Of a stretch of DNA of 64,000 bases, positions 14,790-48,041 are shown piece by piece. The notes under the pieces were generated by a model, which was not told the origin of the DNA, searched no databases, and worked only from the letters and a program-made list of their open reading frames with translations. Position 1 is the stretch's first letter. Every line of letters starts with the position of its first letter. The translations under genes were made by a program, and so were the position numbers. Source of the stretch: a bacterium. Lineage in GTDB: Bacteria > RBG-13-61-14 > DATKZS01. The stretch is taken from NCBI GenBank assembly GCA_963674965.2, contig CAXXFL010000004.1:352001-416000 (forward strand). The letters are read 5' to 3'.

Positions 14790-14865
<76 letters not shown>

Positions 14866-15476: not shown

Positions 15477-15515
15477 GGTCCCGCGATAATGTCTTCAATA
15501 TCGCGGCCACCCCGC
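15477..15515. repeat. GGGGTGGCC-hairpin REP-like element
   Basis: ccgcgata-atgtcttcaa-tatcgcgg-ccaccccgc; shares the tgtcttcaatat loop sequence (opposite strand) and the ggccaccccgc foot with 26611-26670. Confidence 0.65.
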
Positions 15516-15917
15516 CGCGGCGAAGGTTTCGGCGGGCGAGTAGGACATGTCCAGCCGGCCTATCCTCATGAAGGCGCCATCGTACATGAGCTTGATCCAG
15601 CCCTCGTCCATGTGGAGCTTGCGGCCCTGGTCGTGCACGACCTTGTCCTCATGCCGGAGCAGGATGAAACCCTCGGCGTGCTCGCTCGGGTTGATGTGAA
15701 TTTTTAGGTCGGCGTACCGCACATGGACGGTGCTCACCTGCTCGTCGTCGGCCGCGCCCGAGTCGAAATGAAAATCGTTCAAAGTCACCCTGGCGTCTAT
15801 CTTACCCGAGAAGCTCACCAGCGGGGTCTCCTCGGCGCCAAGGCCCGCGCAGAGCGGCGCCATCACCGCGATCAAACAAATCATCGCTAACTTCCATGAC
15901 AATAACCTTACTTCCAT
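15495..15917 (-). pseudogene. Probable 3'-truncated outer-membrane porin-like gene
   Basis: AGGAGG RBS, signal peptide, alternating beta-strand pattern (VSFSGKIDAR, ADLKIHIN, DEGWIKL, MRIGR); only about 140 aa, and the last codons (GWPRY*) come from the REP. Confidence 0.5.
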
Positions 15918-16139
15918 AACTTGCCTCCTAAATGGATTGTTTTCTCCGGCGATCAAAGCAGACGTCCCCACTCGTCGCCGCCTTTAAAACCATATGATCG
16001 CTAACGGGTAAACAATATTTGCCTGTTCCCCGCTGTCGCCCATATCGAGCTATAGTTTATCCGTTCGGCTAAAATGGAGCATTCTGAAACGCGAGTCATT
16101 CCCGGAATGTCAAACTCGCCGACCTGCTCGCTATGCTCG

Positions 16140-16335
16140 CCCATATAGCGGAGCTATATGGGTTACTTATAATTCAAGACCCGTCTGTGAGTTACCTGTT
16201 GGCCCATGCATTTTCACAAAATGCACGGTTGTAGCCGCAGGCTGAGTATTGCTGTTTACTAAATCAAGCACGGTTTTTTAGCTCCTCCCCTTGAAAAAGG
16301 CCTTTCGATACGATTGGCGTCAGAAGCGTTCAGCC
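16140..16335. repeat. REP-like hairpins plus a ~62 bp segment duplicated at 26554-26616
   Basis: Perfect hairpin CCCATATAGC-gga-GCTATATGGG; tggcccatgca..tgcacgg..agccgcaggctga arm (16198-16245); gttttttagctcctcc.cttgaaaaagg...tacgattggcgtcag...cgttcagcc. Confidence 0.7.
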
Positions 16336-16342
16336 TATCCGC

Positions 16343-16951
16343 TTACCTATGAATATTTTTTACCATTATATTTTGCTTGGCCTCAGAGATAATGCCGTAT
16401 ACTTTCCTTACGTCTCTTACAGACTCGAGACATTGAACGGATGGGCCGCGATTACCCCAAAACATCTTTGCAATATGGCCTCTGCTGGAGTGGGCCAATA
16501 AAGATGAATCCGTTGCCAGCGTTATGGTCCCGCTTCCGTCGCTGTTTTCAGTGACTTCAACCATTTGGGTAGTGGCCAGAGGTAATAATTTCGATTTGCT
16601 TTTTATAAATTGGGAAATGAAGACAATCCTGTCCGAAGTCACCGCGTATATCGTGTTTTTTCTTTTGTACGAGTCAAGTAAGAATCTTCCGAAAGCAAAG
16701 TATAGCCCCGCTAATAATATGGAGAGTAAAAACGATAAAGGAAATACCATTGTTGCGAATTTCTCATGGCCTCGGGAGATAACTATATAACAAAATAGGC
16801 ATGCCCCGCATGATAAAATGAATCCAAGGGGAACCATGAATAGGTCAAGAGGCGTCGTCTTAAATCCTTTTTTGGGGGAATCATGCCAGAGAATATTTTC
16901 CTCCGGCGATAAAACACCTTCAATATTTTCAACGCTTGGATGCTTCATCAA
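16343..16951 (-). CDS. Membrane protein with two TMs and a bacterial PH-like domain; putative immunity protein
   Basis: L.PEE.ILW..P, two TMs, TIYAVT.DRI, DGSGTI; low GC; paralog of 17000-17593. Confidence 0.7.
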   Translation of the reverse strand: MMKHPSVENIEGVLSPEENILWHDSPKKGFKTTPLDLFMVPLGFILSCGACLFCYIVISRGHEKFATMVFPLSFLLSILLAGLYFAFGRFLLDSYKRKNTIYAVTSDRIVFISQFIKSKSKLLPLATTQMVEVTENSDGSGTITLATDSSLLAHSSRGHIAKMFWGNRGPSVQCLESVRDVRKVYGIISEAKQNIMVKNIHR

Positions 16952-16999
16952 CCATTCTCCTGATAATCGATTAAAGACATCGCGGTCGTCGCGCGCCTT

Positions 17000-17593
17000 C
17001 TAGATGACGATTCTTTTGTTCTTCTTGGCTTCATCGATAATATTATATACTTTTCTCACGTCATCGATAAATTCAAAACTTGGGACAAAGGGACCGGAGT
17101 TCAAAGATGTCCAAACCGCCATTTTGTGCCTGTTAAAGTAGGATGATAAATACGTTTTTGCTCCGAACAGAATGGTCCCGCTTCCGTCTTTCTTCTCCGA
17201 GATACCGACCACGCCAAGAGTAGCTATGCTTAACGAAAACAATTTTAATTTCGTTATCTTAGAAAGAAAGATAATTCTATTTGTAGTTACGGCATAAATT
17301 GTTTTATTCCTTTTATATGAGTCAATGAAGAATCTTCCGAATGAGAGGTATAATCCGATTGAAAATATAGGAATATTAAAAATAAAGGCAAATAAAGACG
17401 CCCAGAAATCTCCGGGGCTAGTGAAAATATCAACATAAAAAAAGAATGGTACTGAAAAGAAAGCAATGCCAAAAGGAAAATTAATTACATCAAACGGCCT
17501 CATCATTAACTTAATATCAGGATAGCCGTGCCAGAGTATCTTTTCCTCTGGTAGCAGAATATTTTCAATGTCTTTTTTGCTTAATGGCCTCAT
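17000..17593 (-). CDS. Membrane protein with two TMs and a bacterial PH-like domain; putative cognate immunity protein
   Basis: Starts 19 nt after the Rhs stop; shares FGRF..DSYKR..TIYAVT and DVRKVY.II.EAK with its neighbour. Confidence 0.7.
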   Translation of the reverse strand: MRPLSKKDIENILLPEEKILWHGYPDIKLMMRPFDVINFPFGIAFFSVPFFFYVDIFTSPGDFWASLFAFIFNIPIFSIGLYLSFGRFFIDSYKRNKTIYAVTTNRIIFLSKITKLKLFSLSIATLGVVGISEKKDGSGTILFGAKTYLSSYFNRHKMAVWTSLNSGPFVPSFEFIDDVRKVYNIIDEAKKNKRIVI

Positions 17594-17611
17594 CGAGCAA
17601 TCTCCCGAGTT

Positions 17612-20002
17612 TCAGAAAAATGAAATTGGAACAGGCTCCGAGAAACCATATCCAATATAATTCCCACCACCAACGCCAAAACCAGCTGTTGGTTCAACGC
17701 TAAAAGGAGGTGTTTTACCTTCGCAAACATAATCTAATGAATTTGCAGGAATATTAAAATCAATATCATATCCATATCCATCATGCATTTCCCTTCCAAC
17801 TATAAATCCTGTCCCTGAATAATCCTCTTGAGTACCAAATCCAAGAAGTAAGCCTCCATTTAAATCAGCTCCAACCTGAGGACCCAAAGTACCATATCCT
17901 TGAACTAATAAAAATGGTTTAAAATTAGTAAAATCTATGCATAAATGTAATGATATTTCAGCTCCGATAATTAGACTTGCGCCAATTTCTGCTCCAAATC
18001 CAATAACAATAAGACCATATGGATCATTATAATTTATTGGGGAATTGACTACATATATATATTTATTGTTATATGTATTCACTATTGCTAATAAACCTGG
18101 CCACTTATCCTCCTGGGTAAATCGTCTTTGCTCGGGGCTGTAGTAGCGGGAGCGGTAGAACATGAGGCCGGTTTCGTCGTCATACTCTCTTCCTGTGTAG
18201 CCGTAGGGGGACTGGAGGGAGTAGGGGTTGTAGGTGGAGGTTTGGGCTCCGAAGGGGGAGTATTCGGAGCGCATGAAGACGGCGCCGTTGGACTCGAACT
18301 CGGTGAGGGAGCCGAGACCGTCGGTGAGGGGGAAGGCGGCACCCCCGGCGGAGTCCATCCCCTGGAGGAGGTCGTCGACGCCCGGGCCGTGGACGTAACG
18401 ATTCACCACCGTCGCCCCGTCGAACGACTGCACCACGTCCTCGCCGTCGTAAAAATAAATCGTCTCCTCCGTCCCAAGGTCCTTCAGCACCCGCCGCCCA
18501 AGCGCGTCGTAGACATACTCCACCACCGTGGTCGAGCCTTCCTTGACCTCCACCAGCATATCGTCGGCGTCATAATAATAATCACGAGCCTCCACCGTCG
18601 TGGTACCGTTAATCACGTCCCGGGAGGACATGGCGCCGGCGTCATCGTACTCGTACCGGACCACGTAATCCGCCGCCTCCGACGTGTTCCCGTCCGCGTC
18701 CATGTCATACCAGATCGCCTCCAGCCGGTTCATGCCGTACGCGTCGTAAAAGTACGTCTCCTCCTCCAGGTCGAAACCGCCGTCAACCTCGGTCACGGAC
18801 AGGATATTCCCCAGGGTATCATACTCGTACTCCAGCGTCGAGCCGTCCCAAGTCCCCGCCCTCGAAAGCCGATAAAACGAATCGTACTCGTACTCGACCC
18901 GCACCGACGAACCGCTCAAGGTCCGTACCTGCGCCGTTCGCTGCCCCTTGGCGTTGGCGCCCGAGTCGTATTCGTACTGATACCTCGACAGCGTGGTACT
19001 CCCGTCCTTGTGATGGATGTCCGTCAATCTCCCCTGCTCGTCGTAACCGTATTCCGTCGCCGACGACGCCGTCACCCCGTCCGCCCGGTACCGCGTAACC
19101 TTGCTCCGCATGCCCTGCTCATCGTACTCGTACTCCGCCACCGTCGTGCCGTTCCTGCTCACCGTTTGCAAAGACCCGTCGTCGTAATACCCGTACTCGA
19201 CCGTCTCCCCGTCCGCCGTCGCCATCCTCGTCACCCGGTCCCCGGCGTCATACTCATAATACACGGTCTCCCCGACCGTCGACCCGCAAGCCGCGTCCGC
19301 GCAAACCGTCTGCTCGACCGACGAAACCCGAAAGTACTCGTCATACTCGTAATCCAGCGCCGTGCCCCCAACCTTGTCGTCCTTGACGTAATCGATCCGC
19401 CCGCCAATATACCCCACCTCGATCGTCCTCAGAAGCGACCCCTTGTTCGCGCAGCTCGAACCGGCCCAATACTTCCTCTTCCAAGGCCGGTTCATGCCGT
19501 CGTATTCATAAGACACAACCGAGTTGCCCGCGTTCACCACGCACGTCACCCGTCCGATCTCATCGTAAGTATAGCTCGCCGTCGGGTCCCCCGCGCTCGC
19601 GTCCTCCCGGATCACCTTGTCCATCCGCCCGAAGTCGTCGTACGTGTACAGCGTCTCCAGCGCCGCGCCGGCCGGTTCCGCCGTGAAGCCGACCAGGTTG
19701 CCGACGCCGTCGTAGTCGAAGGTGGTGATGGACGCCGCGCTTCCGATCTCGACCTCGGCCAACCGCCCCCTGGCGTCGGACAGGTACTTCGCGTCCCTGC
19801 CGTTCACGTCGTTGACCGTCACCAGCGTCGCCGTGGCCGTGGTCCCGCCGATGGCCTCGGTCCCGTAGGTCACGCCGGTGTTGAAGCTCACGCCGTCCAC
19901 CTCGGGCAAAGTCACCTCGGTCATCCTGCCGATATCGTCCCAGGTGGCCTGCACTTTCCTGTGCGTGTCGCCGTTTAGCATGACGGACGCGGGCAGACCC
20001 AA
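17612..20002 (-). pseudogene. N-terminally truncated Rhs/YD-repeat protein with a Gly-rich hydrophobic C-terminal toxin domain
   Basis: YD repeats; core GYTGREYDDETGLMFYRSRYYSP...NSPINYNDPYG; abrupt GC drop at the CT; no convincing start or RBS. Confidence 0.85.
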
Positions 20003-20022
20003 AAAGTAACTATCTCCCCTTT
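20001..20022. repeat. Degenerate single arm of the GGGGACAG-TACTT family at a cassette junction
   Basis: aaaaagtaactatctccccttt resembles aagtacactgtcccc (27461-27475); lies between the immunity stop (20027) and the Rhs break. Confidence 0.4.
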
Positions 20023-20026
20023 CCGT

Positions 20027-20401
20027 TCAGTCAATTGGCGGTTTGAACTCGAACTCTTTTTTGCCGACGGGAATTAACTGGAGATCGCCGAATTCAATGG
20101 TTAAGAAATGTTCGCAATCATCCGGCGTCCAAATTTCGGCACGATATCCATTATCCAATAATGTCACTTTAATATCAGTAATCCAATCCCAACTCTGTCT
20201 ATCTTTCATAATGATTTCATATGAGGTGACTTCCTGAAAAAGTAATATTCCAGGCTCCGGTATATATCCTTCAGCGTATTCCCAGTCGAAGTTGACGTTC
20301 TTGAGATGAAGAGCAATCGATTTTTCTTGTTTGTCAATGATGGTTTTCAGTATTCTTCCATCATGAAAACAGCCATAATCCTTTATAATTTCAATTCCCA
20401 T
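20027..20401 (-). CDS. Putative immunity protein (N-terminal FHD motif, Imm50-like)
   Basis: GGGAGG RBS; low GC; downstream of an Rhs CT; CFHDGRI motif. Confidence 0.6.
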   Translation of the reverse strand: MGIEIIKDYGCFHDGRILKTIIDKQEKSIALHLKNVNFDWEYAEGYIPEPGILLFQEVTSYEIIMKDRQSWDWITDIKVTLLDNGYRAEIWTPDDCEHFLTIEFGDLQLIPVGKKEFEFKPPID

Positions 20402-20477
20402 CTAAGTCCTCCCATTAATTGTCGAGAAAACATCTGAAGTAACTAAAACATTCTGACTTACTATAGAATCCTCACTT

Positions 20478-22062
20478 TTAATAAACGAAAACGAACGATG
20501 GTGAAGGGGATACCATGAACGCTGATGAACCACCTAACATATAGGGACTTATCATTGGGGAAAATAATAGCTGGGGAGTCGCTGGATTTCCAAATTGATC
20601 TACTCCATATATTTCTTTTAATGCCCATTCCCTATCCATGCGTTCTTTTTCTCTATTTGAGAGTGCTTCATTCCACGAGCAAGCCAATCTATTGAGCGTC
20701 GATGGGGGTGACAAATCAACTTCATCTCCAGGGCGGAGATGGTCGTCTCCGTCATTAAAATGCCAATGATCCTTTCCACCAGGTGCTTTCGGGCCTTTAT
20801 CAGGATTTGCAGGATGGTAATCAAGATAGTCATTAGTGTATGCGTTTCTGTATCTCATGCCGTTCGGATGTTTATGGGTCCAATCGGTTCTCCATTCAGG
20901 TCCCAAACCATTCGGGCCACTGGGCAATCTCATTCTGGTGAGACCAAACGCATCGGTGAACTGGGCGGGGGAATTGTCAACGTAACTGTATTTGTTCGCA
21001 TAAGTAATTGGAAGCACCAAAATCCCGGCAAATTTATCCTCCTGCACGAATCGTCTTTGTTCGGGGCTGTAGTAGCGGGAGCGGTAGAACATGAGGCCGG
21101 TTTCGTCGTCGTGTTCGCGGCCGGTGAAGCCGTAGGGGGACTGGAGGGAGTAGGGGTTGTAGGTGGAGGTTTGGGCGCCGAAGGGGGAGTATTGGAAGCG
21201 CATGAAGACGGCGCCGTTGGACTCGAACTCGGTGAGGGAGCCGAGACCGTCGGTTAACGGGAAGGCGGACCCGCCGGAGTTTTCGCCCTGGAGGACGTCG
21301 TCGACGCCCGGGCCGTGCACGCAGCGGCCTACCACCGTCGCCCCGTCGAACGTCTGCACGATGTCCTCGCCGTCGTAGAAGTATATGGTCTCGTCCGTCC
21401 CCAAGTCCTTCAGCACCCGCCTCCCAAGCGCGTCGTAAACATACTCCACCACCGTGGTCGCGCCTTCCTTGACCTCCACCAGCATATCGTCGGCGTCATA
21501 ATAATAATCCCGAGCCTCCACCGTCGTGGTCCCGTTAATCACGTCCCGGGCCGACATGGACCCCGCGTCGTTATAATCGTACCTCACCACGTAATCCGCC
21601 GGCTCCGACGTGTCCCCGTCAGCGTCCATGTCGTACCAGATCGCCTCCAGCCGGTTCATCCCGTAACTATCGTAAAAGTATGTCTCCTTCTCCAGGTCGA
21701 AGCCACCGTCAACCTCGGTCACGGACAGAATATTCCCCAGGGTATCATACTCGTACTCCAGCGTCGAGCCGTCCCACGTGCCCGCCCTCGAAAGCCGATA
21801 AAACGAATCGTACTCGTAGTCGACACGCACCGACGAGCCGCTCAAGGTCCGCACCTGCGCCGTCCTTTGCCCCTTGGCGTTGGCGCCCGAGTCGTATTCG
21901 TACTGATACCTCGACAGCGTGGTACTCCCGTCCTTGTGATGGATGTCCGTCAATCTCCCCTGCTCGTCGTAACCGTATTCCGTCGCCGACGACGCCGTCA
22001 CCCCGTCCGACCGGTACCGCGTTACCTTGCTCCGCGCGCCCTGCTCATCGTACTCGTACTCC
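20478..22062 (-). pseudogene. Orphan Rhs core fragment with a C-terminal toxin containing DHWH (putative nuclease/RNase)
   Basis: Near-identical DNA to 18120-19136; core ends NSPAQFTDAFG; homology stops at 22062. Confidence 0.85.
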
Positions 22063-22077
22063 TTGACTTTACTTATC

Positions 22078-22094
22078 ATGGATGTCACCAGATC
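22078..22094. repeat. Single arm of the TGGGGACA family
   Basis: Minus strand gatctggtgacatccat versus gatatggggacatccat (29609) and gatctggggacagcat (22927, 27354); 1 nt from the stop of 22096-22329. Confidence 0.6.
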
Positions 22095-22095
22095 A

Positions 22096-22329
22096 CTAAC
22101 GCGCTTCTAATTCAGCAATTTGCCAATAATATGTGCAGCCTTTCTCAGAATTTAGCGTATTCAATCTATTCACTTCTAATTTGGCTCTTTCTAATGTTCG
22201 TACAAGCTTTTTAATTGTAAAATAAGTTCGCATGCCAGGCTTATGATCATAGTGATCTACTCGTACTATTGCATATACCTGATTCGCTGAAGTTTTATCC
22301 GTTGTATTCATGATGCTATCCTCATTCAT
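22096..22329 (-). CDS. Small hypothetical protein, putative immunity
   Basis: VYAIVR...IKKLVRTLERAKLEVNRLN.LN...YYW...LEAR; paralog of 22480-22695. Confidence 0.65.
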   Translation of the reverse strand: MNEDSIMNTTDKTSANQVYAIVRVDHYDHKPGMRTYFTIKKLVRTLERAKLEVNRLNTLNSEKGCTYYWQIAELEAR

Positions 22330-22479
22330 TATTCAGCATACTTGGGTAAAAGCGTTAGCCTCATATAAAGTCCAACAATCGTGATTATAAATCCGCTATA
22401 TTTACAGGCCGGATATCACGTTCTCTCACATTTGCACATACTGTCGAGATTATCTGCATTTCTCGCACTAAATTAATAC

Positions 22480-22695
22480 TCACCGCTCTTCCAGTCGAGT
22501 ATATCCCCAATAGTAATTACTGCCGTTTTCTGGATTAGTAGCGTTCAACCGCTCAACTTCAGACTCGGCTCTTTCCATAGTCCATACAATTTTTTCTATT
22601 GCAAGTTTCATCATAAATTCCCCATCGATTGATAAATGAACAATCCGCATTACCGCATATACCGGTTCAACCGGCCTACGATTCTTTTCTTTCAT
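22480..22695 (-). CDS. Small hypothetical protein, putative immunity
   Basis: VYAVMR...IEKIVWTMERAESEVERLNA.N...YYW...LEER; AGGA RBS. Confidence 0.65.
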   Translation of the reverse strand: MKEKNRRPVEPVYAVMRIVHLSIDGEFMMKLAIEKIVWTMERAESEVERLNATNPENGSNYYWGYTRLEER

Positions 22696-22802
22696 AAATA
22701 ATTCCTATCATTTTTGCTCAATCCCTGTAAAACCAATAAGCCAATCAATTTTTCCCGGTGAAATGAGGGCTTCGATTTATATTAGCGTTCAACTTGCTCT
22801 TG

Positions 22803-22925
22803 CTAATCCCATGATGAGTCAGTCATGGTGCCCAGAAACTTACGTGTAACCGGATCATGCACGCCACCGCTATGATCGAACAGTACATTATCTGAAGGAC
22901 CACGGCCCCAGTACTTCTTAATATG
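22803..22925 (-). pseudogene. 40-codon C-terminal remnant of a probable polymorphic toxin
   Basis: Manual translation HIKKYWGRGPSDNVLFDHSGGVHDPVTRKFLGTMTDSSWD*; no start codon; begins flush with the repeat element at 22926. Confidence 0.5.
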
Positions 22926-23063
22926 AGATCTGGGGACAGCATACTTATCTCGCCTTTATTTACGGCTAGAGAGGTGTTTATAAATATTCCATCAATATTC
23001 ATCGTCGAAGAACCCAGGTGATTCGGAATGTGTCAAGCAAAATGAGACACGCCTTTCCTGAAT

Positions 23064-24080
23064 TTAGTGTGGCAAACTGTTTGTTTCCTCCGGTTTCTCC
23101 GGTGGGTTGATCCACGCTTTGCCGGGCAACTCCGGCGCCGTCGGCGGTCTTTTCACGAAGCGCTCCGGGTTTTTTTCATAGGCGTGGTCGAGCGTTTTTT
23201 GCCGGGCGGCCACGATCTCGCTCGCCATTCCGTAATGGACCATCTCGGGCGTCATCAGGCCGATCCCGGTGTGCCGATGCTCGCGGTTGTACCAATCGAA
23301 AAACTTCACGCAAAAGGCCCTGGCGTCCTCGATGGAGCCGAACCGGCTCGGGAACTCGGGCCGGTACTTCATGGTCTTGAACTGGCTTTCCGAGTAGGGG
23401 TTGTCGTCGGACACGTGGGGCCGCGAGTGGCTCTTGGTCACGCCCAGGTCGGCCATCAAGAAGGCCACCGGCTTTGATTTCATCGAACTCCCCCGGTCGG
23501 CGTGGATTGTGAGTTGTCCCGGCTCGATCTCCTGTTTTCGGATGCTGTCCCCGATCAGGCGGCGGGCCAGCTCGGCGCTCTCGCGGCGGGCGATCATCCA
23601 GCCCACCACGCAGCGGCTGAAGATATCCATGATCACGTAGAGCTGGTAGCAGGTCCATTTGGCCGGTCCCTTGAGCTTGGTGACGTCCCAGGACCAGACC
23701 TGGTTGGGGGCCTCGGCCAGCAACTCGGGTTTTTTGTATCGGGGATGCCGAAGCTGGTTGCGCCGCTCCCTGACTTCCTTTTCCGAGTCGAGGACGCGGT
23801 ACATGGTGCGGACCGAGCACAGCCATGTCCCCTCGTCCAGGAGCGTTGCCCAGACCTCGCGGGGGGCCTTGTCGGCAAAGCGCTCGGAGTGGAGTCCGTC
23901 CAGCACCCGGCGCCGCTCGTCCTCGCTCAACGACCTTGCCGGCTTGGCCGCGCGCCTCGGCGGCGGAGGCCCGAAGGGAATTTTAGCGCGGCGGTCAAAC
24001 GTTGCCCGCGACAGGCCCAGGGCCTCGCAGGCGGCCTTGACGCCGACCCGGGGAGCGGCCGTGCTTGCCGATTCCATCAT
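23064..24080 (-). CDS. IS3-family transposase OrfB (rve DDE integrase core)
   Basis: PNQVWSWDVT, DIFSR.VVGW, IHADRGS, DNPYSESQFKTMK, WYN.EHRH. Confidence 0.95.
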   Translation of the reverse strand: MMESASTAAPRVGVKAACEALGLSRATFDRRAKIPFGPPPPRRAAKPARSLSEDERRRVLDGLHSERFADKAPREVWATLLDEGTWLCSVRTMYRVLDSEKEVRERRNQLRHPRYKKPELLAEAPNQVWSWDVTKLKGPAKWTCYQLYVIMDIFSRCVVGWMIARRESAELARRLIGDSIRKQEIEPGQLTIHADRGSSMKSKPVAFLMADLGVTKSHSRPHVSDDNPYSESQFKTMKYRPEFPSRFGSIEDARAFCVKFFDWYNREHRHTGIGLMTPEMVHYGMASEIVAARQKTLDHAYEKNPERFVKRPPTAPELPGKAWINPPEKPEETNSLPH

Positions 24081-24616
24081 TCGCTCTCTTCGCCGGGCGG
24101 CTTGGCCAGGGGTATCCCCAGCAGATCGGCAACTTTTTTTTGGAAGTCGATTATCATCTCGGCCTGTTCGAGCCGCTTTTGGAGCTTCCGGTTCTCGCGC
24201 TCGAGGCGGGCCACTTCATCGGCCAGCGGGTTTTTGGCCTTGGGCTTGCGGCCCCGCTTTACGGGCGAAAGCGCTTTCAAGGCCCCCTCGTCCCGCTGCT
24301 TGCGCCAGGCCGTCAGGTGCGACGAATAAAGGCCCTCCCGGCGCAGCAGGGCGCCGACCTCGCCATGCCCCGAGCAGGCGTCGGCCTTCCCGAGGATTGC
24401 GAGCTTGTAAGCCGCGGTGAAGCGCCGCCGGGCGGGCTTTTCCGGGACCTCCGGGTCGGGAAGAATGATCGGCGCCCCTCCCCGCTCGGGCCGCTTGGCC
24501 GGAGTGTCCTCCGGCTCGGCCGTCCCGGTTGGGGAGACTCCGGTCGCCCTACGGGCTCCCTCCGTCTCCCCAACAATCCCTGCCTTCTTCCTGTCTTCAT
24601 CCATCTCTCTATACAT
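24077..24616 (-). CDS. IS3-family transposase OrfA (HTH)
   Basis: RRRFTAAYKLAIL, GALLRREGLYSSHL..WR, coiled coil, QKKV on an A-run; ATGA overlap with orfB. Confidence 0.9.
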   Translation of the reverse strand: MYREMDEDRKKAGIVGETEGARRATGVSPTGTAEPEDTPAKRPERGGAPIILPDPEVPEKPARRRFTAAYKLAILGKADACSGHGEVGALLRREGLYSSHLTAWRKQRDEGALKALSPVKRGRKPKAKNPLADEVARLERENRKLQKRLEQAEMIIDFQKKVADLLGIPLAKPPGEESE

Positions 24617-24723
24617 CCTAATACCTCCCCCGCCCTACAGTAATTTAACATAGGGGAAGTGTCTCATCTACGTTGGCACAGAGGGATTTTCATAAATTAA
24701 GTACTCTGTCCCCAGAACTCCCA

Positions 24724-25647
24724 TCAACGGTCGTCATATTTATTGAGCAATTCCAATATCTCAAGTTCACCACGATTCTTCGCAATGTCAAAAGCATTGT
24801 TACCTTTGTCGTTGCGGATTGTCGGGTCGGCGCCGTTCTCCAATAGTATTTTCACCATTTCGATGTGTCCCCAGAAAATGGCACGATTAAGCGGCGTATC
24901 TCTTTTAGAAGTTAGGGCATCAATTTCAGCTCCTTTTGATATTAGATATTTGGCCACTCCAGCTTTGCCATAGGAAGCAGCATGGTGTAAAGCCGTGTAT
25001 CTTGAAGAGCTGTTGCAAAAGTGTATGTCGGCGTTATGTTTTATCTGATCAGCAATTCTTTTTCTTTCAAAAAATCTATCCGCGATCTCTGGAGAAATTG
25101 TATTTCCAAGAACAATATCATACACTCCATTGTCGTTTAAGTTGAGATAGTAATCTATCAGTTCCCTATTATCATTGCGAACGGCATCCGCTAATGGATG
25201 ATGTCCTCCTAAGTTATGAATATCAGCGCCATAAGTAAGAAGTAGATTTATCATTTTTGTGTCACAAGCTGTTGCATAATTTATCGGACTTTCAAATTGG
25301 GCGCAAACATCGGGATTTGCACCACTTTTCAATAATTTTTCAGCTTCTTTATAATTGCATGCAATTACAGCTTTATGCAGGGGCGATAAGGGAGTGGGAA
25401 TTATATCAGAACCCTCTATTTCTTTTAACGACTCATTCTCACATGTACGATATTTTTGTTGAACTCTTGCTTCGTACAAAGGGCTCTCAGGACTGATACG
25501 CATGTGGTTTTTATAATTTTTTAAAAATGTGCTTGCGGAGAAAAATATAATGATAATAAATACCATGAAAACAACTGAAATAATGGCCAGGGTTTTGCCC
25601 CGATGCATCCAAAAACTTGTTTTTGAAGTTGTATTTAGGTTGTTCAT
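24724..25647 (-). CDS. Ankyrin-repeat protein with an N-terminal TM; putative immunity
   Basis: SPLHKA, TALHHAA..G, TPLNRA..GH.EMVKILLENGADP; starts 1 nt after the Rhs stop. Confidence 0.85.
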   Translation of the reverse strand: MNNLNTTSKTSFWMHRGKTLAIISVVFMVFIIIIFFSASTFLKNYKNHMRISPESPLYEARVQQKYRTCENESLKEIEGSDIIPTPLSPLHKAVIACNYKEAEKLLKSGANPDVCAQFESPINYATACDTKMINLLLTYGADIHNLGGHHPLADAVRNDNRELIDYYLNLNDNGVYDIVLGNTISPEIADRFFERKRIADQIKHNADIHFCNSSSRYTALHHAASYGKAGVAKYLISKGAEIDALTSKRDTPLNRAIFWGHIEMVKILLENGADPTIRNDKGNNAFDIAKNRGELEILELLNKYDDR

Positions 25648-25648
25648 A

Positions 25649-26544
25649 TCACTTGAATCCTAAATCATAGCAGGCTTGGCAGTAATCGCTACATGCTTCG
25701 GCACAGTCAGTTGTTTGAGGGTCTAGTCCTGCTTGAACTCCCTTCCGATTTGCCAAGATATCTCCTGCGCATTCTTCTGGTTGTGTATCAAGATATCTAT
25801 ACTCTTGTAGATATCCATACACTTCTGATCCTAACACCCCCGTAACTCCATACTTTTGTGTAACTTCACAGTGAGCATTACAATGAGCATATTCATCCCA
25901 ATTCATCCCACCCTGTTTTTTCAGTTCATCCTCAAAGTATGTTATTAATGGACCTCTTTTATTTCCTCTATTTGCTTTTCGCTCTTTCGCTAAATCCCGC
26001 TTAAAATTGCGTTTAGCACGCCAAAAATGTAGCGGGATTAATACCGCAAAATCAAGTAGAGCTAAAGGGGCCTCTGTAAATGGATTATGTCTTCGTTCAC
26101 CTTCCGGGTCAATATAAATTATTGGATTATTATAGACGTAAAGATATTTATCCACATAGGTAGCAGGGTCACTGATTTCTCCCCTCCACTTATCCTCCTG
26201 CACAAACCTCCGCTGCTCGGGGCTGTAGTAGCGGGAGCGGTAGAACATGAGGCCGGTTACGTCGTCGTGCTCGCGGCCGGTGTAGCCGTAGGGGGACTGG
26301 AGGGAGTAGGGGTTGTAGGTGGAGGTTTGGGCGCCGAAGGGGGAGTATTCGGAGCGCATGAAGACGGCGCCGTTGGACTCGAACTCGGTGAGGGAGCCGA
26401 GACCGTCGGTGAGGGGGAAGCCGGCGCCCCCGGCGGAGTCCATCCCCTGGAGGAGGTCGTCGACGCCGGGGCCGTGGACGTAGCGGTTCACCACCGTGGC
26501 CCCGTCGAACGTCTGCACGATATCCTCGCCGTCGTAAAAATAAA
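25649..26544 (-). pseudogene. Orphan Rhs core fragment with a Cys/His-containing CT (DxYxHC...DxxAN..G)
   Basis: Core near-identical to 18120-18459; ends NNPIIYIDPEG; homology stops at 26544. Confidence 0.85.
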
Positions 26545-26553
26545 GCATTGATT

Positions 26554-26670
26554 GTTTTTAGCTCCTCCACTTGAAAAAGGGCCGTTCAATACGATTGGCG
26601 TCAGGAACGTTCAGCCCGCGGCTTCGCCGCCCACGCAATATTGAAGACAATATTGCGTGGGCCACCCCGC
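26554..26670. repeat. 62 bp duplicated segment plus GGGGTGGCC-hairpin REP
   Basis: Perfect hairpin GCCCACGCAATATTG-aaga-CAATATTGCGTGGGC; left part matches 16273-16335. Confidence 0.8.
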
Positions 26671-26707
26671 AGATTGTCCTCTCAATGAACTGGTAGAACA
26701 CTGCCAG

Positions 26708-27289
26708 TCACAAAACGGATAGCCTCTTCAGATCGTAAATATCAATTTGTTTTTCCACAAAGATATCTTCTAAAGCATCCGGCCCATTTTTTTCAGCAAA
26801 ATCAATTTCCTTTTCAGAAATAGGAACCGCTAATAACCACGCTACAGTCTTTTTTTCAAAGTACATTGTTTTCAATGTATCTTCCCATAAAAATGGAGGG
26901 ACGAATAAAAAATGCTTCATTGTTGGGGACAAGTTATACATTTTAAGTACGTCCGGGAAAATAGCCCCCGGGTAACAAGGCCATTTTGAGTTAATAATGC
27001 AAAATGCTGCCGTCCCTAGCGCAAGATCAAAGTCCGTGAATTCCGAGTAGCAAGCTCCCACAATTTCAAGTCGTGTTGGATACTCTAAGCCTTGCATGAT
27101 AAGCGGCGAGTCAGACAATCCGATCGTTGAATAAGACGACACGCCTTTTTCCGGATGATTAGGGCAAGTTAGTATGTCGACAAAATTCTCCTCCGCATCA
27201 TCCAGATGCCGACGTACTGTTGATTCCCTCCCGAAAGCTTGTACTAATGCCCTAGTGATTTCTAAGTTCTCTTCGGAAATGGCGCGCAT
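26708..27289 (-). CDS. Suppressor-of-fused (SUFU) domain immunity protein
   Basis: SYSTIGLSD, RLEIVGAC, PGAIF.DV, KHFLFVPPFLW, VAWLLAVPISE.E, G.DALE..F. Confidence 0.85.
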   Translation of the reverse strand: MRAISEENLEITRALVQAFGRESTVRRHLDDAEENFVDILTCPNHPEKGVSSYSTIGLSDSPLIMQGLEYPTRLEIVGACYSEFTDFDLALGTAAFCIINSKWPCYPGAIFPDVLKMYNLSPTMKHFLFVPPFLWEDTLKTMYFEKKTVAWLLAVPISEKEIDFAEKNGPDALEDIFVEKQIDIYDLKRLSVL

Positions 27290-27313
27290 AGTTATCCCCC
27301 CTGATGTGGTCTG

Positions 27314-27352
27314 TTATGGAATTTCGCTTCTATGATTACGGTTTGAACTTGT
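27314..27352 (-). pseudogene. 12-codon possible toxin tail remnant (TSSNRNHRSEIP*)
   Basis: Flush with the repeat at 27353; resembles the SSNRSHxxE ending I recall for GH-E/HNH-type nuclease toxins; very short. Confidence 0.3.
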
Positions 27353-27482
27353 AGATCTGGGGACAGCATACTTATCTCGCCTTTATTGACGGCTAGAGAG
27401 ACGTTTATGAATATTCCATCAATATTCATCGTCGAAGAACCCAGTTGATTTTCAAAAATTAAGTACACTGTCCCCAGAACTC
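27353..27482. repeat. ~130 bp MITE/REPIN-like element (copy B, intact)
   Basis: agatctggggacagcatacttat...aattaagtacactgtccccagaactc with terminal inverted repeats. Confidence 0.85.
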
Positions 27483-27520
27483 AATATAGGTGATCTAAAT
27501 TCTCCCATTAGGCCTGACCC

Positions 27521-28114
27521 TCACTTCTTCCTGTTAGTAAATTTGGGATCATCTACATTTAATGAAGGTCCGGATATGCGATAATCATCCTGCAAATGAT
27601 AAATATCCCCCTTTTCATCAACCATCCAGATATCTAATCCACTATCCGCGTCTAAATTTGCCACCGCATATGCATTCCATTTGTCAACTTCCCTGACGCA
27701 TTTATAATAAGATGGTAAAGACTCCTTTAGATTCCATACGCTTGGCATTAAAGTATCATTGTAGAAAATTGTATATCTCCCTTTGTTTGTAATATACCCC
27801 ATGTCAGCAAAATTTACAGCGAAATATCCCTTTTCTTTTCTATAAATCAGTTGCTTAGAATGAACTGAACGCAATTCACGTTGCGCCTCAAGACCATTTC
27901 CTCGATAGTTGAAAGCCTTGTAATTATCAATGTTGAGTGCAAACAGAAAAGTTGCAAGAATTATTAATAGGTAGGATAGCGTCAATTGAAAAATTGTCAT
28001 GCTATACTTCCTGTTAATACTTTTTATCCATATCATCAAATCTTTCATGCCATACCTTTTACTTTCTAATGTTCTATTAACTCGGTTTATTAGGGATATG
28101 CCGGCTAATCCCAC
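27521..28114 (-). CDS. Type IV pilin-like protein in the immunity position (degenerate prepilin site)
   Basis: SMTIFQL plus TM, EAQREL..V...Q.IY, AYAVANLDAD..LDIWMVD align by eye with the pilin at 45113; alternative start at 28048. Confidence 0.6.
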   Translation of the reverse strand: MGLAGISLINRVNRTLESKRYGMKDLMIWIKSINRKYSMTIFQLTLSYLLIILATFLFALNIDNYKAFNYRGNGLEAQRELRSVHSKQLIYRKEKGYFAVNFADMGYITNKGRYTIFYNDTLMPSVWNLKESLPSYYKCVREVDKWNAYAVANLDADSGLDIWMVDEKGDIYHLQDDYRISGPSLNVDDPKFTNRKK

Positions 28115-29605
28115 GGCTTACCTGTTAGGAATAGAGGGCCGAGCTTCCACCATGGGTCAAGTGAAAAAGATGTTCCATCGTCAAAGTTAACGTATGTGCG
28201 ATCATGAGATCCACCTGAATAACCAGGCACTTGGTGTGCATTAATCGTGACGTCATCAGGGAAATATCCCCAATTATTCATGAAATCAGCAAGGTCCTGT
28301 GAGTACACACTGCACTGAAAATCATCATCGATCCCGCCATCACACTTGCCCCCAAAAGCGCAGTCAACGACCACAAAGTAATTTAAAGGCCCGCTGAACA
28401 CTAAGCCATTTAGAGCTTTTAGTGGTGGAGGCACATCTGATGTCAACATCGATCTAAAGAAGTTGTTTGCAGGACCCCACATCCAATAGCGTGGGCTAGT
28501 AATTGACCATATTTGCATTAAAGCAACGGATTCAGCAGCAACCCATACTTTATCCTTAGCAGCCCATGCTTTATCCTTCAAATTCATTAAATATTTAATA
28601 TCTCGCCATATATAATCATTCGGGTTAAACTGATATTCTCTTCTTCCTGTTGGGTCAATTAGATTGACTGGATTATTGTCAACATATTTGTATTTGTTAA
28701 CGTAGGTTCCAGGATCATTAACTTCTCCCCTCCACTTATCCTCCTGTACAAACCTCCGCTGCTCGGGGCTGTAGTAGCGGGAGCGGTAGAACATGAGGCC
28801 GGTTTCGTCGTCGTGCTCGCGGCCGGTGAAGCCGTAGCCGCCCAGGCCGATGGAGTTGGGATCGTAGGTGATGGTTTGGTCGCCGAAGGGGGAGTATTCG
28901 GAGCGCATGGTGAGGGAGCCGTTGGCTTCGAGTTCCGTGAGGGAACCGAGCCCGTCGGTCAGGGGGAAGGCCGACCCGCCGGAGCCGACGTCCTGGAGCA
29001 CGTCATCTATCCCCGGCCCGTGCACGTAGCGGCCTACCACCGTCGCCCCGTCGAACGACTGCACGATATCCTCGCCGTCGTAAAAATAAATCTCCTCGTC
29101 CGTCCCCAAGTCCTTCAGCACCCGCCGCCCCAAAGCGTCGTAGACATACTCCGCCACCGTGGTCGCGCCTTCCTTGACCTCCACCAGCATATCGTCGGCG
29201 TCATAATAATAATCCCACGCCTCCACCGTCGTGGTCCCGTTAATCACGTCCCGGGAGGACATGGCGCCCGCGTCGTTATAATCGTACCGCACCACGTAAT
29301 CCGCCGCCTCCGACGTGTCCCCGTCAGCGTCCATGTCGTACCAGATCGCCTCCAAGCGGTTCATGCCGTAACCGTCGTAAAAGTATGTCTCCTTCTCCAG
29401 GTCGAAGCCACCGTCAACCTCGGTCACGGACAGAATATTCCCCAGGGTATCATACTCGTACTCCAGCGTCGAGCCGTCCCAAGTCCCCGCCCTCGACAGC
29501 CGATAAAACGAATCGTACTCGTACTCGACCCGCACCGACGAACCGCTCAAGGTCCGCACCTGCGCGGTTCGCTGCCCCTTGGCGTTGGCGCCCGAGTCGT
29601 ATTCG
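28105..29605 (-). pseudogene. Orphan Rhs core fragment with a CT carrying a C..H..DPW (transglutaminase/papain-like) pattern
   Basis: Core near-identical to the other copies; ends NNPVNLIDPTG; homology stops at 29605; the ORF-track extension to 29778 is repeat-derived. Confidence 0.85.
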
Positions 29606-29607
29606 GA

Positions 29608-29789
29608 AGATATGGGGACATCCATACTTAATTCGCTGTTTGGCAAATTATCTCCTCCGAGTGCCCGGGATAATATTTCGTTTCCCGCTTGTATTAAGCT
29701 ATTCAAAAACCGGCCTCTATAACTATCATTGTCGATATTGACGTGATATACCGGAAACGTCCAATAATTTAGTATCATATCCCCAGATC
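29608..29789. repeat. ~180 bp element with TGGGGACA-family terminal IRs (copy C, different interior)
   Basis: agatatggggacatccatacttaatt ... aatttagtatcatatccccagatc. Confidence 0.7.
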
Positions 29790-45614: not shown

Positions 45615-48041
45615 TCAGGGGTTTAACCCCGACACGGCAACGGGCTCGATCGAAAAGGCGGCCGCCGGCTCCGCCTGGCCGAACAGATATTTGCTCGAGT
45701 GTCCCCAGCACTTGACCGAGCCGTCCGAGATGGCCGCGCACGCGTGGAACTCGCCCGCGGAGATGGACACGGCCCCTTCCACGCCGCCGATTTCCACCGG
45801 CGTGGATACTATATCGAGGAGTTGTACTCCCTCCCCCGACGGAGAAGTCTGGCCTTCGGCGTTTTGGCCCCAGCAACGGACCGTCGAGTCTCCCATGAGC
45901 GCGCAGGTATGATTGAGGCCCGCGTCGATATCCACGGCCCCGCTTATGCCGACCACCGCCTGGGGGTCGGGCGAAGAATAATCACCCCACCAGTAATCCT
46001 CCCAATTGTACGAGGTTTCTCCATTTCCAAGCTGGCCCCAGTTATTGTATCCCCAACAGAAAACCGAGCCGCCCTCCAGAAGAGCGCAGGAATGGAAATA
46101 GCCCGCGGCCACCCGGGACGCGTTTTCGATCGATGACAAAATACAGGGTTTCTTAACGTCACAGGTGGAAGTGGAACTGACCTTGTATCCCCAGTCGGAC
46201 CCCCAACAGGCCACCGACCCTCCGGCCAGGACCGCGCAGGTATGGGTAATTCCCGCGTCCACGTCGATGGCGGCCGGCAGTCCCGTGGGTATCACGGGGA
46301 TATTCGAGGCGTAGTAATAATAACCCCATGGCCATTCGTATAACTCATATCCCCCGCTTCTTCCGTTTCCGAGTTGGCCGTTACGATTGCTCCCCCAGCA
46401 GAGAACCGATCCTCCGTCCATGAGGGCGCAGGAGTGCATGAACCCGGCGCTGACCTGGTAGGCGTCCGACAGGCCCGAGACGAACACGGGCGTCTTGGTG
46501 GCCGGCGCGGCCGTGTCGCCGTCGCCCAGGACGCCCAGGTAATTCGGGCCCCAGCAGGCCACCGAGCCCGAGTCCAGCACGGCGCAGGCGTGGATCATGC
46601 CCGCCGAGGCGTCTATTGCCGGACCCAACCCGGACGGGGTGATGGGAGTATGGGAGCTTACGGTCACGCCGTCGCCCAACTGGGCCTTCTTGCCCCATCC
46701 CCAGCAGAGCACGGAGCCGCCGTCAAGCAAGGCGCAGTTATGGTCGAACCCGGCGGAGATCGAGGCGACGCCCGAGGGAGGAAGCACGGTCGTGGGCGTC
46801 CGTATTACGGCCGGGTCCGTTGCCGCCCCCAGTTGGTTAAGGAGGTTGTTGCCCCAGCAAAGGATCGAGCCGCCGTCAACAACGGCGCAGGTATGGGTGT
46901 ATCCACCCGCGGCCTTTTGGGCCGCTTTGGTGAGTCCCGGCTTTCGAACGGGGGAGAGAGCGTATCCGCCCAGGTCGTTACCCAGGGCATATTCGAAGTT
47001 ATTGCCCCAGCACTCGATCGATCCGCCCTCCAGCACGGCGCAGACGTGATATTCGCCCGAGGCTATCTCGGCGGCGGGAGCGGACTGGCCGGCCGGCGTG
47101 GGCGAGGTCGAGTAGGAATGGGTCCCGTTTCCAAGTTGGCCGTATTCGCCGTCGCCCCAGCAGGTGATGGACCCGCCCTCGAGCAGAGCGCAGCTATGCC
47201 ACGCCCCGACGCTGAGGGCCGCGGCGTTGGACACGTTAGCCACGTTCACCGGATAGGGGGAGTCGGCGGTGCTCCCGTCCCCAAGCTGGCCGCCGCGAAA
47301 ATGCTCGACGCAGGGATTGCCGCAGCAGCAATCGAAGTAATGTTTCCTGGTATTAGAACCCCAGCACTTGATATCGTTGTTCTCGAGGATGGCGCAGGAG
47401 TGTCTGAGCCCAAGGGATACGCCTACCGCGTTATTGATGCCCAGGACGTTTACCGGGGTCGCGGAGTCCTGGGTGGTCCCGTCTCCCAACTGGCCATAAC
47501 CGTTATAGCCCCAGCAATAGACCGAGCCTCCCTCGATGACCGCGCAGGAATGAGAGCCCGGGGCGTATTCGTCATCTTCGTAATCATACATTTGTTGGCT
47601 CCATAGCCCCGCGTCCACGTCGATAACGGCGGTCAGGCCCGCGACCGTGACGGCGACGCTCGAGCTCGAGGTGGTCCCGTCCCCCAGTTCTCCCCGGTAG
47701 TTGGCGCCCCAGCATTTGGCCTTGCCCGAGTCCACCGCGCAGGAGTGGAAGCCGCCCAGCCCCAGGGACGTGACGTTCGCCAGGCCGCTTGCCTTGACGG
47801 CGGACTGGCGGGGAAGTTCGGTCCCGTCCCCCAACTGGCCGGCCTCGTTGTGGCCCCAGCACTTGACCGACCCGCCGTCCACGATGGCGCAGGAGTGGAA
47901 GGCCCCCGCGTCCAGGTCTTTTGCCTTGTGCTCGAGCTTGGGCGCGCTGATACTGAACGTACAGTCGGGAGAGGAAAATCCTCCCAGTCCGAGAGTTACA
48001 CATGCCAGCCCCATTAGCTGGATGATTCTCAATCGCTTCAT
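45615..48041 (-). CDS. Secreted RCC1-repeat (BLIP-II-like) beta-propeller protein
   Basis: About 14 repeats of G..HSCA...GGSV.CWG.N..GQLGDG; signal peptide; AGGAGG RBS. Confidence 0.92.
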   Translation of the reverse strand: MKRLRIIQLMGLACVTLGLGGFSSPDCTFSISAPKLEHKAKDLDAGAFHSCAIVDGGSVKCWGHNEAGQLGDGTELPRQSAVKASGLANVTSLGLGGFHSCAVDSGKAKCWGANYRGELGDGTTSSSSVAVTVAGLTAVIDVDAGLWSQQMYDYEDDEYAPGSHSCAVIEGGSVYCWGYNGYGQLGDGTTQDSATPVNVLGINNAVGVSLGLRHSCAILENNDIKCWGSNTRKHYFDCCCGNPCVEHFRGGQLGDGSTADSPYPVNVANVSNAAALSVGAWHSCALLEGGSITCWGDGEYGQLGNGTHSYSTSPTPAGQSAPAAEIASGEYHVCAVLEGGSIECWGNNFEYALGNDLGGYALSPVRKPGLTKAAQKAAGGYTHTCAVVDGGSILCWGNNLLNQLGAATDPAVIRTPTTVLPPSGVASISAGFDHNCALLDGGSVLCWGWGKKAQLGDGVTVSSHTPITPSGLGPAIDASAGMIHACAVLDSGSVACWGPNYLGVLGDGDTAAPATKTPVFVSGLSDAYQVSAGFMHSCALMDGGSVLCWGSNRNGQLGNGRSGGYELYEWPWGYYYYASNIPVIPTGLPAAIDVDAGITHTCAVLAGGSVACWGSDWGYKVSSTSTCDVKKPCILSSIENASRVAAGYFHSCALLEGGSVFCWGYNNWGQLGNGETSYNWEDYWWGDYSSPDPQAVVGISGAVDIDAGLNHTCALMGDSTVRCWGQNAEGQTSPSGEGVQLLDIVSTPVEIGGVEGAVSISAGEFHACAAISDGSVKCWGHSSKYLFGQAEPAAAFSIEPVAVSGLNP

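Follow-up and report, generated by a model that had tools for sequence, protein, structure and literature searches.

In this work we describe an array of orphan Rhs toxin pieces and immunity genes, punctuated by dispersed hairpin repeats, which occupies 16.0-29.8 kb, on the minus strand, of a 64,000-nucleotide stretch of bacterial DNA (hereafter the window, C4:352001-416000; C1-C7 are the contigs of the source genome, G000, which comprises 6.5 Mb in 7 contigs with ~58% GC). Breaks that truncate Rhs genes in this genome touch such repeats more often than expected from the background, and in several joints the repeat itself has been cut. We consider it fairly probable that mobile hairpin repeats seed deletions, that selection for immunity determines which deletions are spared, and that recombination in the conserved Rhs core then copies the results. 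The parts of the array, read along the minus strand, are as follows (REP, repetitive extragenic palindrome; TIR, terminal inverted repeat; MITE, miniature transposable element with inverted repeats; IS, insertion sequence; the strand is given where one is assigned):

29608..29789: element C, non-coding and 180 bp long, whose two TIRtron arms (GGGGWSAS type) face inward; the genome has 10 related copies
28105..29605, minus: orphan Rhs core plus toxin tip 1 (RHS_repeat; 88% identical to other cores), cut at most 3 nt from an arm of element C
27521..28048, minus: AT-rich, weakly pilin-like putative immunity gene, assigned by its position after the tip (Pilin_GH, E 0.13)
27353..27482: element B, a MITE-like 130-bp TIR dimer; 16 genome copies of at least 85 bp
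27292..27352, minus: short tail of 19 codons, a probable but unconfirmed toxin end, recognized in the sequence; Pfam without match
26708..27289, minus: SUFU-family orphan immunity gene (PF05076, E 3e-27)
26545..26670: one half of the REP dimer F2a, consisting of a single hairpin and the 62-bp spacer, fused to the Rhs core; recognized by repeat comparison
25649..26544, minus: orphan Rhs core plus toxin tip 2; the joint gives an in-frame ATG at 26548
24724..25647, minus: ankyrin-repeat putative immunity gene (Pfam Ank)
22926-23023 and 24685-24720: element A, a B-type TIR dimer split by an IS, 95% identical to element B
23024..24684, minus: IS3-like element (HTH_Tnp_1 and rve) with a 4-nt target duplication and 24 full genome copies, outside the repeat system
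22803..22925, minus: 40-codon C-terminal tail of a polymorphic toxin domain, beginning at an element arm; 17 homologues, all C-terminal
22480-22695 and 22096-22329, minus: two small paralogous genes, putative immunity (open reading frames; no Pfam family above cut-off)
22063..22094, minus: the outermost 32 nt of a family-1 element, which run straight into the Rhs core and match C6:487150-487185 up to the break; 2-nt microhomology
20478..22062, minus: orphan Rhs core plus toxin tip 3 (RHS_repeat)
20027..20401, minus: AT-rich putative immunity gene with an FHD motif (open reading frame; no Pfam match)
17612..20026, minus: the longest orphan Rhs fragment, plus tip 4; 5' junction without a recognizable repeat
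17000-17593 and 16343-16948, minus: two paralogous membrane-protein genes, one with a weak bPH_2 match
16022..16336: two adjacent REP dimers that close the array (F2b, 16022-16202; F2a remnant, 16200-16336)

The main evidence is a genome-wide map of all 5'-truncated Rhs pieces, in which 34 pieces fall into 14 break classes (a piece cut by an IS and an internal deletion were excluded). If touching is taken as a distance of at most 5 nt, seven of the 14 classes touch a dispersed repeat (29605, 26544 and 22062 in the window, C2:9090, head Y, C2:101779 and C6:480545), with p 0.0003-0.001 at a background touch rate of 10.6-13.9%. Two classes (head X and C6:478667) sit 80-110 nt from an F2b arm, and five are without a repeat. 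An initial annotation of this DNA had placed the breakpoints at the repeats; this stands as an excess over the background, but in a weaker form than the "every junction" that had been claimed. Two candidate additions were discarded: a tally of 9/16 that included both window tails, for which tails without repeats were not enumerated, and the interpretation of the head X spacer as the inside of the F2b dimer, with which it agrees in length and in the last five bases but aligns with z between -0.7 and 2.2. The 13 cassettes that carry head X were therefore counted as near rather than touching.

Five unrelated repeat families take part in the joints, whose position may be the end of an arm, the interior of a spacer or the site immediately behind a GTAG foot; the microhomology is 0-2 nt. 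In five cases (22062, 26544, C2:101779, C2:80618 and C6:480545) the joint cuts the repeat itself, from which it follows that the deletion postdates the repeat and ended within it. The case of C2:80618 is the most instructive, as there the final 14 codons of a toxin, ahead of a SUFU gene, are joined to a REP spacer, and the toxin truncated in this way is whole at C6:737300, before the same SUFU gene. This locus repeats the layout of tail and SUFU gene seen in the window, with the ancestor still visible, and fits a deletion that runs from the repeat through the downstream module. The initial annotation had held that core recombination cannot explain the two short tails, which lack a core; capture of toxin DNA is not needed for them, as a deletion of this kind gives the same result. 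As for the tails themselves, the one before the SUFU gene is present, but its length is 19 sense codons in the frame ending at 27292 and not 12 as first reported; no Pfam family was found for it, and its ending presumably resembles those of HNH-type nucleases. All 17 matches of the 40-codon tail, from a search of 1.84 billion representatives, lie at protein C-termini, including those of Rhs-type and PT-HINT proteins, which identifies it as a toxin C-terminus.

The truncated repeats also bear on the possibility that the repeats are passive passengers, which enter neutral space between an immunity stop codon and a dead toxin fragment after the break has occurred, so that their presence at joints is an ascertainment effect. 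The distribution of the repeats lends this explanation some support. Among the clusters of family 1, F2a and F2b counted over the genome (n=122), 18 lie inside Rhs arrays, which make up 1.75% of the genome; the expected enrichment of the motifs in arrays was thus found, yet 104 clusters are elsewhere. The density is 16.1 clusters per 100 kb in arrays, 5.4 in other low-GC windows and 1.3 elsewhere, i.e. the repeats favor low-GC DNA generally, with arrays enriched threefold over other low-GC DNA (p 0.0005); of the 41 clusters of family 1 alone, 4 are in arrays. A de novo repeat set places a repeat at most 40 nt past the stop codon of 16 of the 44 AT-rich genes in arrays, versus 23 of 320 elsewhere, but the array copies do not count as independent. 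Clusters at most 40 nt behind a stop codon amount to 7/18 in arrays versus 23/104 outside (Fisher p 0.14; random intergenic points, 14%), and the position just behind a stop codon is therefore not special to arrays. All these counts depend on gene calls by a simple in-house caller. Elements B and C, moreover, are whole, so that they may have inserted at an old joint, and no target duplication is seen. Nonetheless, we regard passive insertion as unlikely, as it is contradicted at each of the five joints that cut the repeat.

Most cassettes did not acquire their heads separately. The joint between the F2a half and the Rhs core in the window recurs in three further cassettes on contig C2 (4 cassettes in all), the joint of head Y is shared by 6 cassettes and that of head X by 13; each repeat-to-core joint is a single event that was later copied. 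Over 1511 nt, from the core end through the tip, immunity gene and downstream head, the cassettes C2_o2 and C6_o1 show 100% identity, but their upstream heads differ, and C2_o3 and C2_o5 are 87% alike across the whole unit. Three more pairs have the first 324-370 nt of the tip in common, then diverge and reconverge where a repeat or an older immunity gene lies, and in one pair the tip and immunity gene are 82% alike with different downstream heads. The copied unit is thus the tip with its immunity gene and the downstream repeat, and the crossovers lie in the Rhs core. Such exchange is seen in the C2 and C6 arrays; for the window array we infer it. The logic of attachment sites, which the initial annotation had proposed, does not agree with five repeat families, varying cut positions, minimal microhomology, copied joints and core crossovers; no single family of attachment sites with a fixed crossover at each cassette boundary was found, and seven of the 14 break classes are untouched by a repeat.

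The scenario we favor has three steps. First, mobile REP dimers and TIRtron-derived elements insert immediately after stop codons, whether inside an array or not, as their distribution indicates; Y1 enzymes, whose part in this is established for these families, would be the agent. Second, deletions starting in or at the hairpin repeats would remove downstream toxin DNA, with ends joined at the microhomology described above, and the survivors would be those in which both flanking immunity genes are left intact. The joints are seen directly, and the stimulation by hairpins and the selection for immunity are what we suppose to have produced them. The repeat between the immunity stop codon and the toxin fragment would be the first DNA in which a tolerated deletion can start, and the product would be either a "head", composed of a repeat and the Rhs core, or a bare toxin tail. 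Third, homologous recombination via the conserved cores, of which copied units are the visible trace, would shuffle the units of tip, immunity gene and downstream head, so that most cassettes end up marked by one of a small number of founding joints; the repeats, 130-215 bp long, could also act as the second homology arm. The Y1 enzyme would account for the spread of the repeats and would not be needed for the shuffling of cassettes.

Several points weigh against this scenario. Outside the window, 4 of 10 break classes touch a repeat, which is a modest excess (p 0.016-0.039), and the gene calls behind the background estimate come from a simple in-house caller. A given repeat can have different immunity genes joined close to its outer foot (at 2, 8 and 37 nt in F2a and ~4-13 nt in REP3), and 8 of 15 REP3 copies, among the copies listed, are in Rhs arrays; both observations could reflect active targeting. 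Finally, in one genome alone deletion, insertion and strand transfer are indistinguishable.

The possibility of active targeting deserves attention, as the genome does possess a candidate enzyme. A Y1 (HUH) gene bordered by the same motifs, which the initial annotation had proposed to look for, is present and intact at C7:626054-626719, with family-1 arms on both flanks (whole unit C7:625994-626742), and a Y1 gene between GGGGWSAS inverted repeats, with TIR dimers and clusters dispersed over the genome, is what has been described for TIRtrons and TIRYT enzymes in the available text of the relevant papers (Di Nocera et al. 2013, PMC3733652; Quentin et al. 2018, PMC6006769). Unlike in the described TIRtrons, the enzyme is short (221 aa) and has PF01797 (Y1_Tnp) as its sole Pfam domain; no C-terminal helix-turn-helix extension, as in TnpA-Y1 subclass 2.1, was found by Pfam. 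The core of the family-1 arm fits the GGGGWSAS consensus, and the same arm type flanks ~70 of 80 related metagenome genes (by eye, among the motifs listed). The genome contains five internally deleted copies of this TIRtron with both ends and five single-end remnants; elements B and C of the array are TIR dimers without a gene.

It is tempting to consider an active HUH system, integron-like without an integrase, in which single-stranded DNA would be nicked at the repeats by TIRYT or RAYT enzymes and joined to toxin DNA, with cassettes captured or deleted as the outcome. The deleted copies and remnants, with the same arms as the intact gene, suggest recent mobility. One break lies directly behind the GTAG foot of the REP family that flanks a RAYT gene at C6:230361 (its own REP, a fourth repeat family). 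A second, broken copy of the ankyrin gene exists at the contig ends of C7 and C2, and the DNA that comes after this gene and its B element differs between the window and C2:1304, with one break exactly at the arm; this fits recombination between elements of 95-98% identity, a deletion at the arm, or strand transfer by a Y1 enzyme. TIRs abut orphan Rhs pieces in other genomes as well (below). A similar link has been proposed for lanthipeptide genes: TnpA_REP enzymes of subclass 2.1, i.e. a TIRYT-class enzyme and its fragments, stand beside prochlorosin genes, among hypervariable antagonism-type genes, and diversifying recombination was suggested there, with the later caveat of the authors, in the text available to us, that causality was not shown (Laurenceau et al., bioRxiv 10.1101/2020.03.09.984088); the cargo of that system differs from an Rhs array. 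On the other hand, there is no fixed crossover point and the joints involve five repeat families, no Y1 gene lies beside the array, the five PF01797 matches of the genome all being on other contigs, and neither the source genome nor two loci of genome G001 yielded a RAYT or Y1 gene with F2a or F2b on its flanks. Together with the scarcity of the association elsewhere, described next, this makes an active HUH system at these joints quite improbable. We attach equally little probability to the broader proposal that TIRYT and RAYT enzymes are general integrase-free diversifiers of toxin-immunity arrays, which nick behind immunity genes and join toxin DNA, and it would be just as surprising if the repeat and the Rhs core formed a reusable two-arm acceptor for new cassettes of tip and immunity gene, as that proposal implies.

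In other genomes the pattern recurs but is not general. Among six Rhs loci from relatives (L037-L042), a whole TIRtron abuts an orphan core in one (G007 L041), a GGGGWSAS motif lies within the junction in a second (G010 L038), and in two more the motif is found ~60 nt before an AT-rich gene (G009 L042) or ~230 nt past the last gene (G007 L040); the remaining two (G007 L037 and G011 L039) show no repeat between the immunity gene and the orphan. Of 80 metagenome TIRYT loci (394 kb), 2 contain an Rhs core: in L123 a TIR precedes an orphan Rhs piece, and in L124 TIRtrons stand behind immunity genes. TIRYT genes in the taxonomic class otherwise adjoin ordinary genes. In 20 arrays from the class of genome G041, 49 junctions could be placed (1 unplaced), and GGGGWSAS occurs in 5 of them, all in intervals of more than 400 nt; approximately five more have REP-like hairpins, by eye. 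In three loci of the same class (L195, L197 and L194), REP-like hairpins have inserted into the coding part of the Rhs core, where one short core motif is hit again and again.

An artificial origin of the array, as an assembly chimera joined at repeats, we consider very improbable. The short-read contigs available for comparison come from one study, probably of the source sample; none of those listed spans the array, and they end at repeats, into which they extend 27-30 nt at 22925, 26670, 27353 and 27482. No RNA data set is among the runs listed as containing the array. Nevertheless, they bridge 20001, 22062, 16335 and 24720 with at least 31 letters on each side (junctions 26544 and 29605 are not among the contig pieces listed), the depth is even over the unique parts (~17-20 in run X1), and the joints cut inside repeats rather than between whole copies. 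Apparent joints in the short-read contigs were also considered as excision products and rejected, as they match paralogous C2 copies and other repeat copies.

The window locus is a genuine orphan Rhs array of C-terminal toxin and immunity modules, with a truncated core, the core-end motif and then a variable tip. It holds four 5'-truncated modules of Rhs core, toxin tip and immunity gene, two short tails and one IS3-like element; the initial annotation was right about the order of the modules, about breaks in Rhs at 29605, 26544 and 22062 and about the SUFU and ankyrin genes. The core fragments are GC-rich (61-65%), the tips and small genes AT-rich (39-42%), and four TIGR03696 matches lie in frames of 302-804 aa. 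The four cores share 88-93% identity among themselves and with another four fragments from the beginning of contig C2, and the tips are unrelated; Pfam reports no toxin family in any of the four window tips. The small AT-rich gene behind each tip is a putative immunity gene, recognized by Pfam in the case of SUFU and ankyrin and by position and GC content in the remainder. The labels "pilin-like" and "PH-like" correspond to sub-threshold Pfam scores only (E 0.13 and 0.017), and it is the position of these genes that suggests their putative role in immunity. No parent rhs gene was found for the window array or for the one at the start of C2, neither of which matches the four full-length Rhs genes of the genome; possibly it falls into a gap, as the assembly is 97.6% complete. 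A search for a parent or close relative in contigs of other genomes yielded one distant locus (27%).

As to the repeats of the window, they belong, as had been claimed, to families associated with Y1/HUH enzymes: family 1 can be assigned to TIRtron terminal repeats and family 2 to REP dimers, both of known kinds. The eight family-1 arm positions listed earlier are upheld by a count of the 12-mer (at most 1 mismatch), found 9 times in the window versus 0.59 expected from shuffles; seven of these sites are at listed element ends, one is inside the ankyrin gene and one at 45700. The single arm at 22078-22094 is real, with element sequence continuing right up to the Rhs break. A "degenerate arm" at 20001-20022 had to be dropped, being matched nowhere else in the genome and equalled in arm-matrix score by 883 window positions, so that a true repeat stands at 6 of the 7 junctions said to carry a palindrome. 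Element A, previously taken for one large cassette site, was likewise abandoned as such, being a 130-bp B-type element with an unrelated IS3-like insertion. The "62 bp repeat" does repeat, but as the inner spacer of the ~200-bp REP dimer F2a (17 copies). The placement of the repeats 1-38 nt past immunity stop codons was correct (38, 37, 3, 1 and 6 nt) except for element C, which forms the 5' edge of the array 157 nt after a glycosyltransferase gene, not behind an immunity gene, and has the same arms as those around the Y1 gene at C7:626054. Element B has no copy in 40 other genomes in which it was sought.

The neighbors of the array are a SET-domain gene and the glycosyltransferase gene, with no linked recombinase. 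A tRNA-Phe gene (window 14790-14865) lies ~1.1 kb past the 3' end of the array, with the SET-domain gene in between, and an Rhs-core frame at C3:235792 also comes after an apparent tRNA gene. Scans for sigma-70 promoters (23 versus 17.8 expected) and terminators (10 versus 16) were at chance level. The F2a joint (window 26544-26570) adds GGAGGAG 13 nt ahead of an in-frame ATG, a longer spacing than usual, and orphan cores with this joint might be translated; internal expression of orphans is on record (PMC7043789, in the part available).

Repeats and mobile genes are associated in further loci of the source genome. A degenerate TIRYT-like gene at C7:507790-508727 (311-aa frame, HUH motif E-Y-H) has no GGGGWSAS arms in the adjoining stretch. 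A 347-aa IS110-family transposase gene stands beside an F2b REP arm three times (C2:7687-8730, assigned to the family by Pfam, C2:619325-620368 and C6:741829-742872), which suggests that this element targets REP. Scrambled tandem partial self-copies precede TIR arms at C4:239345-239606, C6:75781-75961 and C1:615906-616005, a possible trace of repeated cutting and rejoining by Y1. An Rhs-free row at C2:618900-625300 (L021) consists of AT-rich genes, each flanked by F2b dimers, including a paralogue of the window gene at 17000-17593 and a WD40 protein, and at C2:268300-271900 (L022) a B-type TIR element bounds each copy of tandem FGE-sulfatase-domain genes; further tandem duplications end at repeats at C1:628.2-628.8 kb, C1:911.8-912.5 kb and C2:335-338.6 kb. 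Two large parent-plus-orphan Rhs arrays, at C2:79143-101900 and C6:733300-758400 (L007-L010), have only two recurrent repeat heads and shared cassettes in a different order, with tips that include HNH and colicin/pyocin DNase-like domains and immunity genes that include SUFU, DUF4304, DUF4265, Tdi1 and Imm11-like members.

The array resembles several known systems, whose descriptions we compare here from the parts of the papers available. Orphan rhs-CT/rhsI and cdiA-CT/cdiI arrays (Poole et al. 2011, PMC3150448; Zhang et al. 2012, PMC3482391) likewise consist of tandem truncated cores with tips and immunity genes, show tails with kept immunity genes and exchange in the conserved core, and for contact-dependent inhibition (CDI) and Rhs systems core-mediated exchange is known together with a transposon-like stretch at one cdiI/orphan junction (PMC3150448, legend of Fig. 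1). What differs here is that dispersed REP and TIR elements are the shared cassette heads in three arrays and that the window Rhs family has no full-length parent in the assembly. REP dimers or REPINs (Bertels and Rainey 2011, PMC3116915) have two inverted hairpins with a ~90-130 bp spacer and are extragenic and dispersed, as in this genome, in which, however, no RAYT is flanked by F2a or F2b and half-deleted dimers are fused to toxin genes. The rAID-1 clusters of Bacteroidales and integrons (Ross et al., bioRxiv 10.1101/471110) also have AT-rich immunity genes split by repeated intergenic DNA; they possess a linked XerD-type recombinase and one intergenic motif, whereas the window array has no linked recombinase, several repeat families and toxin pieces that are kept. 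The available text of PMC3733652 and PMC6006769 does not link TIRs to toxin arrays or flanking deletions, that of a Stenotrophomonas poly-immunity preprint mentions no palindrome or transposase, and a literature search that covered few subscription papers returned none on REP- or TIR-defined heads in Rhs arrays.

The core-recombination model leaves open the origin of the orphan 5' ends and the way in which the far end of a new cassette is joined. The genome described here offers base-level cases, one of them with the ancestral allele present, in which mobile hairpin repeats supply the joint. TIRtrons have barely been studied, and the intact enzyme, arms and natural joints available in this organism would allow direct testing. 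If the TIRYT and RAYT enzymes did prove to be diversifiers of toxin-immunity arrays, an orphan class of transposases would thereby gain a function for the host; if the enzyme is uninvolved, the array would still be a clear example of repeats that steer deletions in conflict loci.

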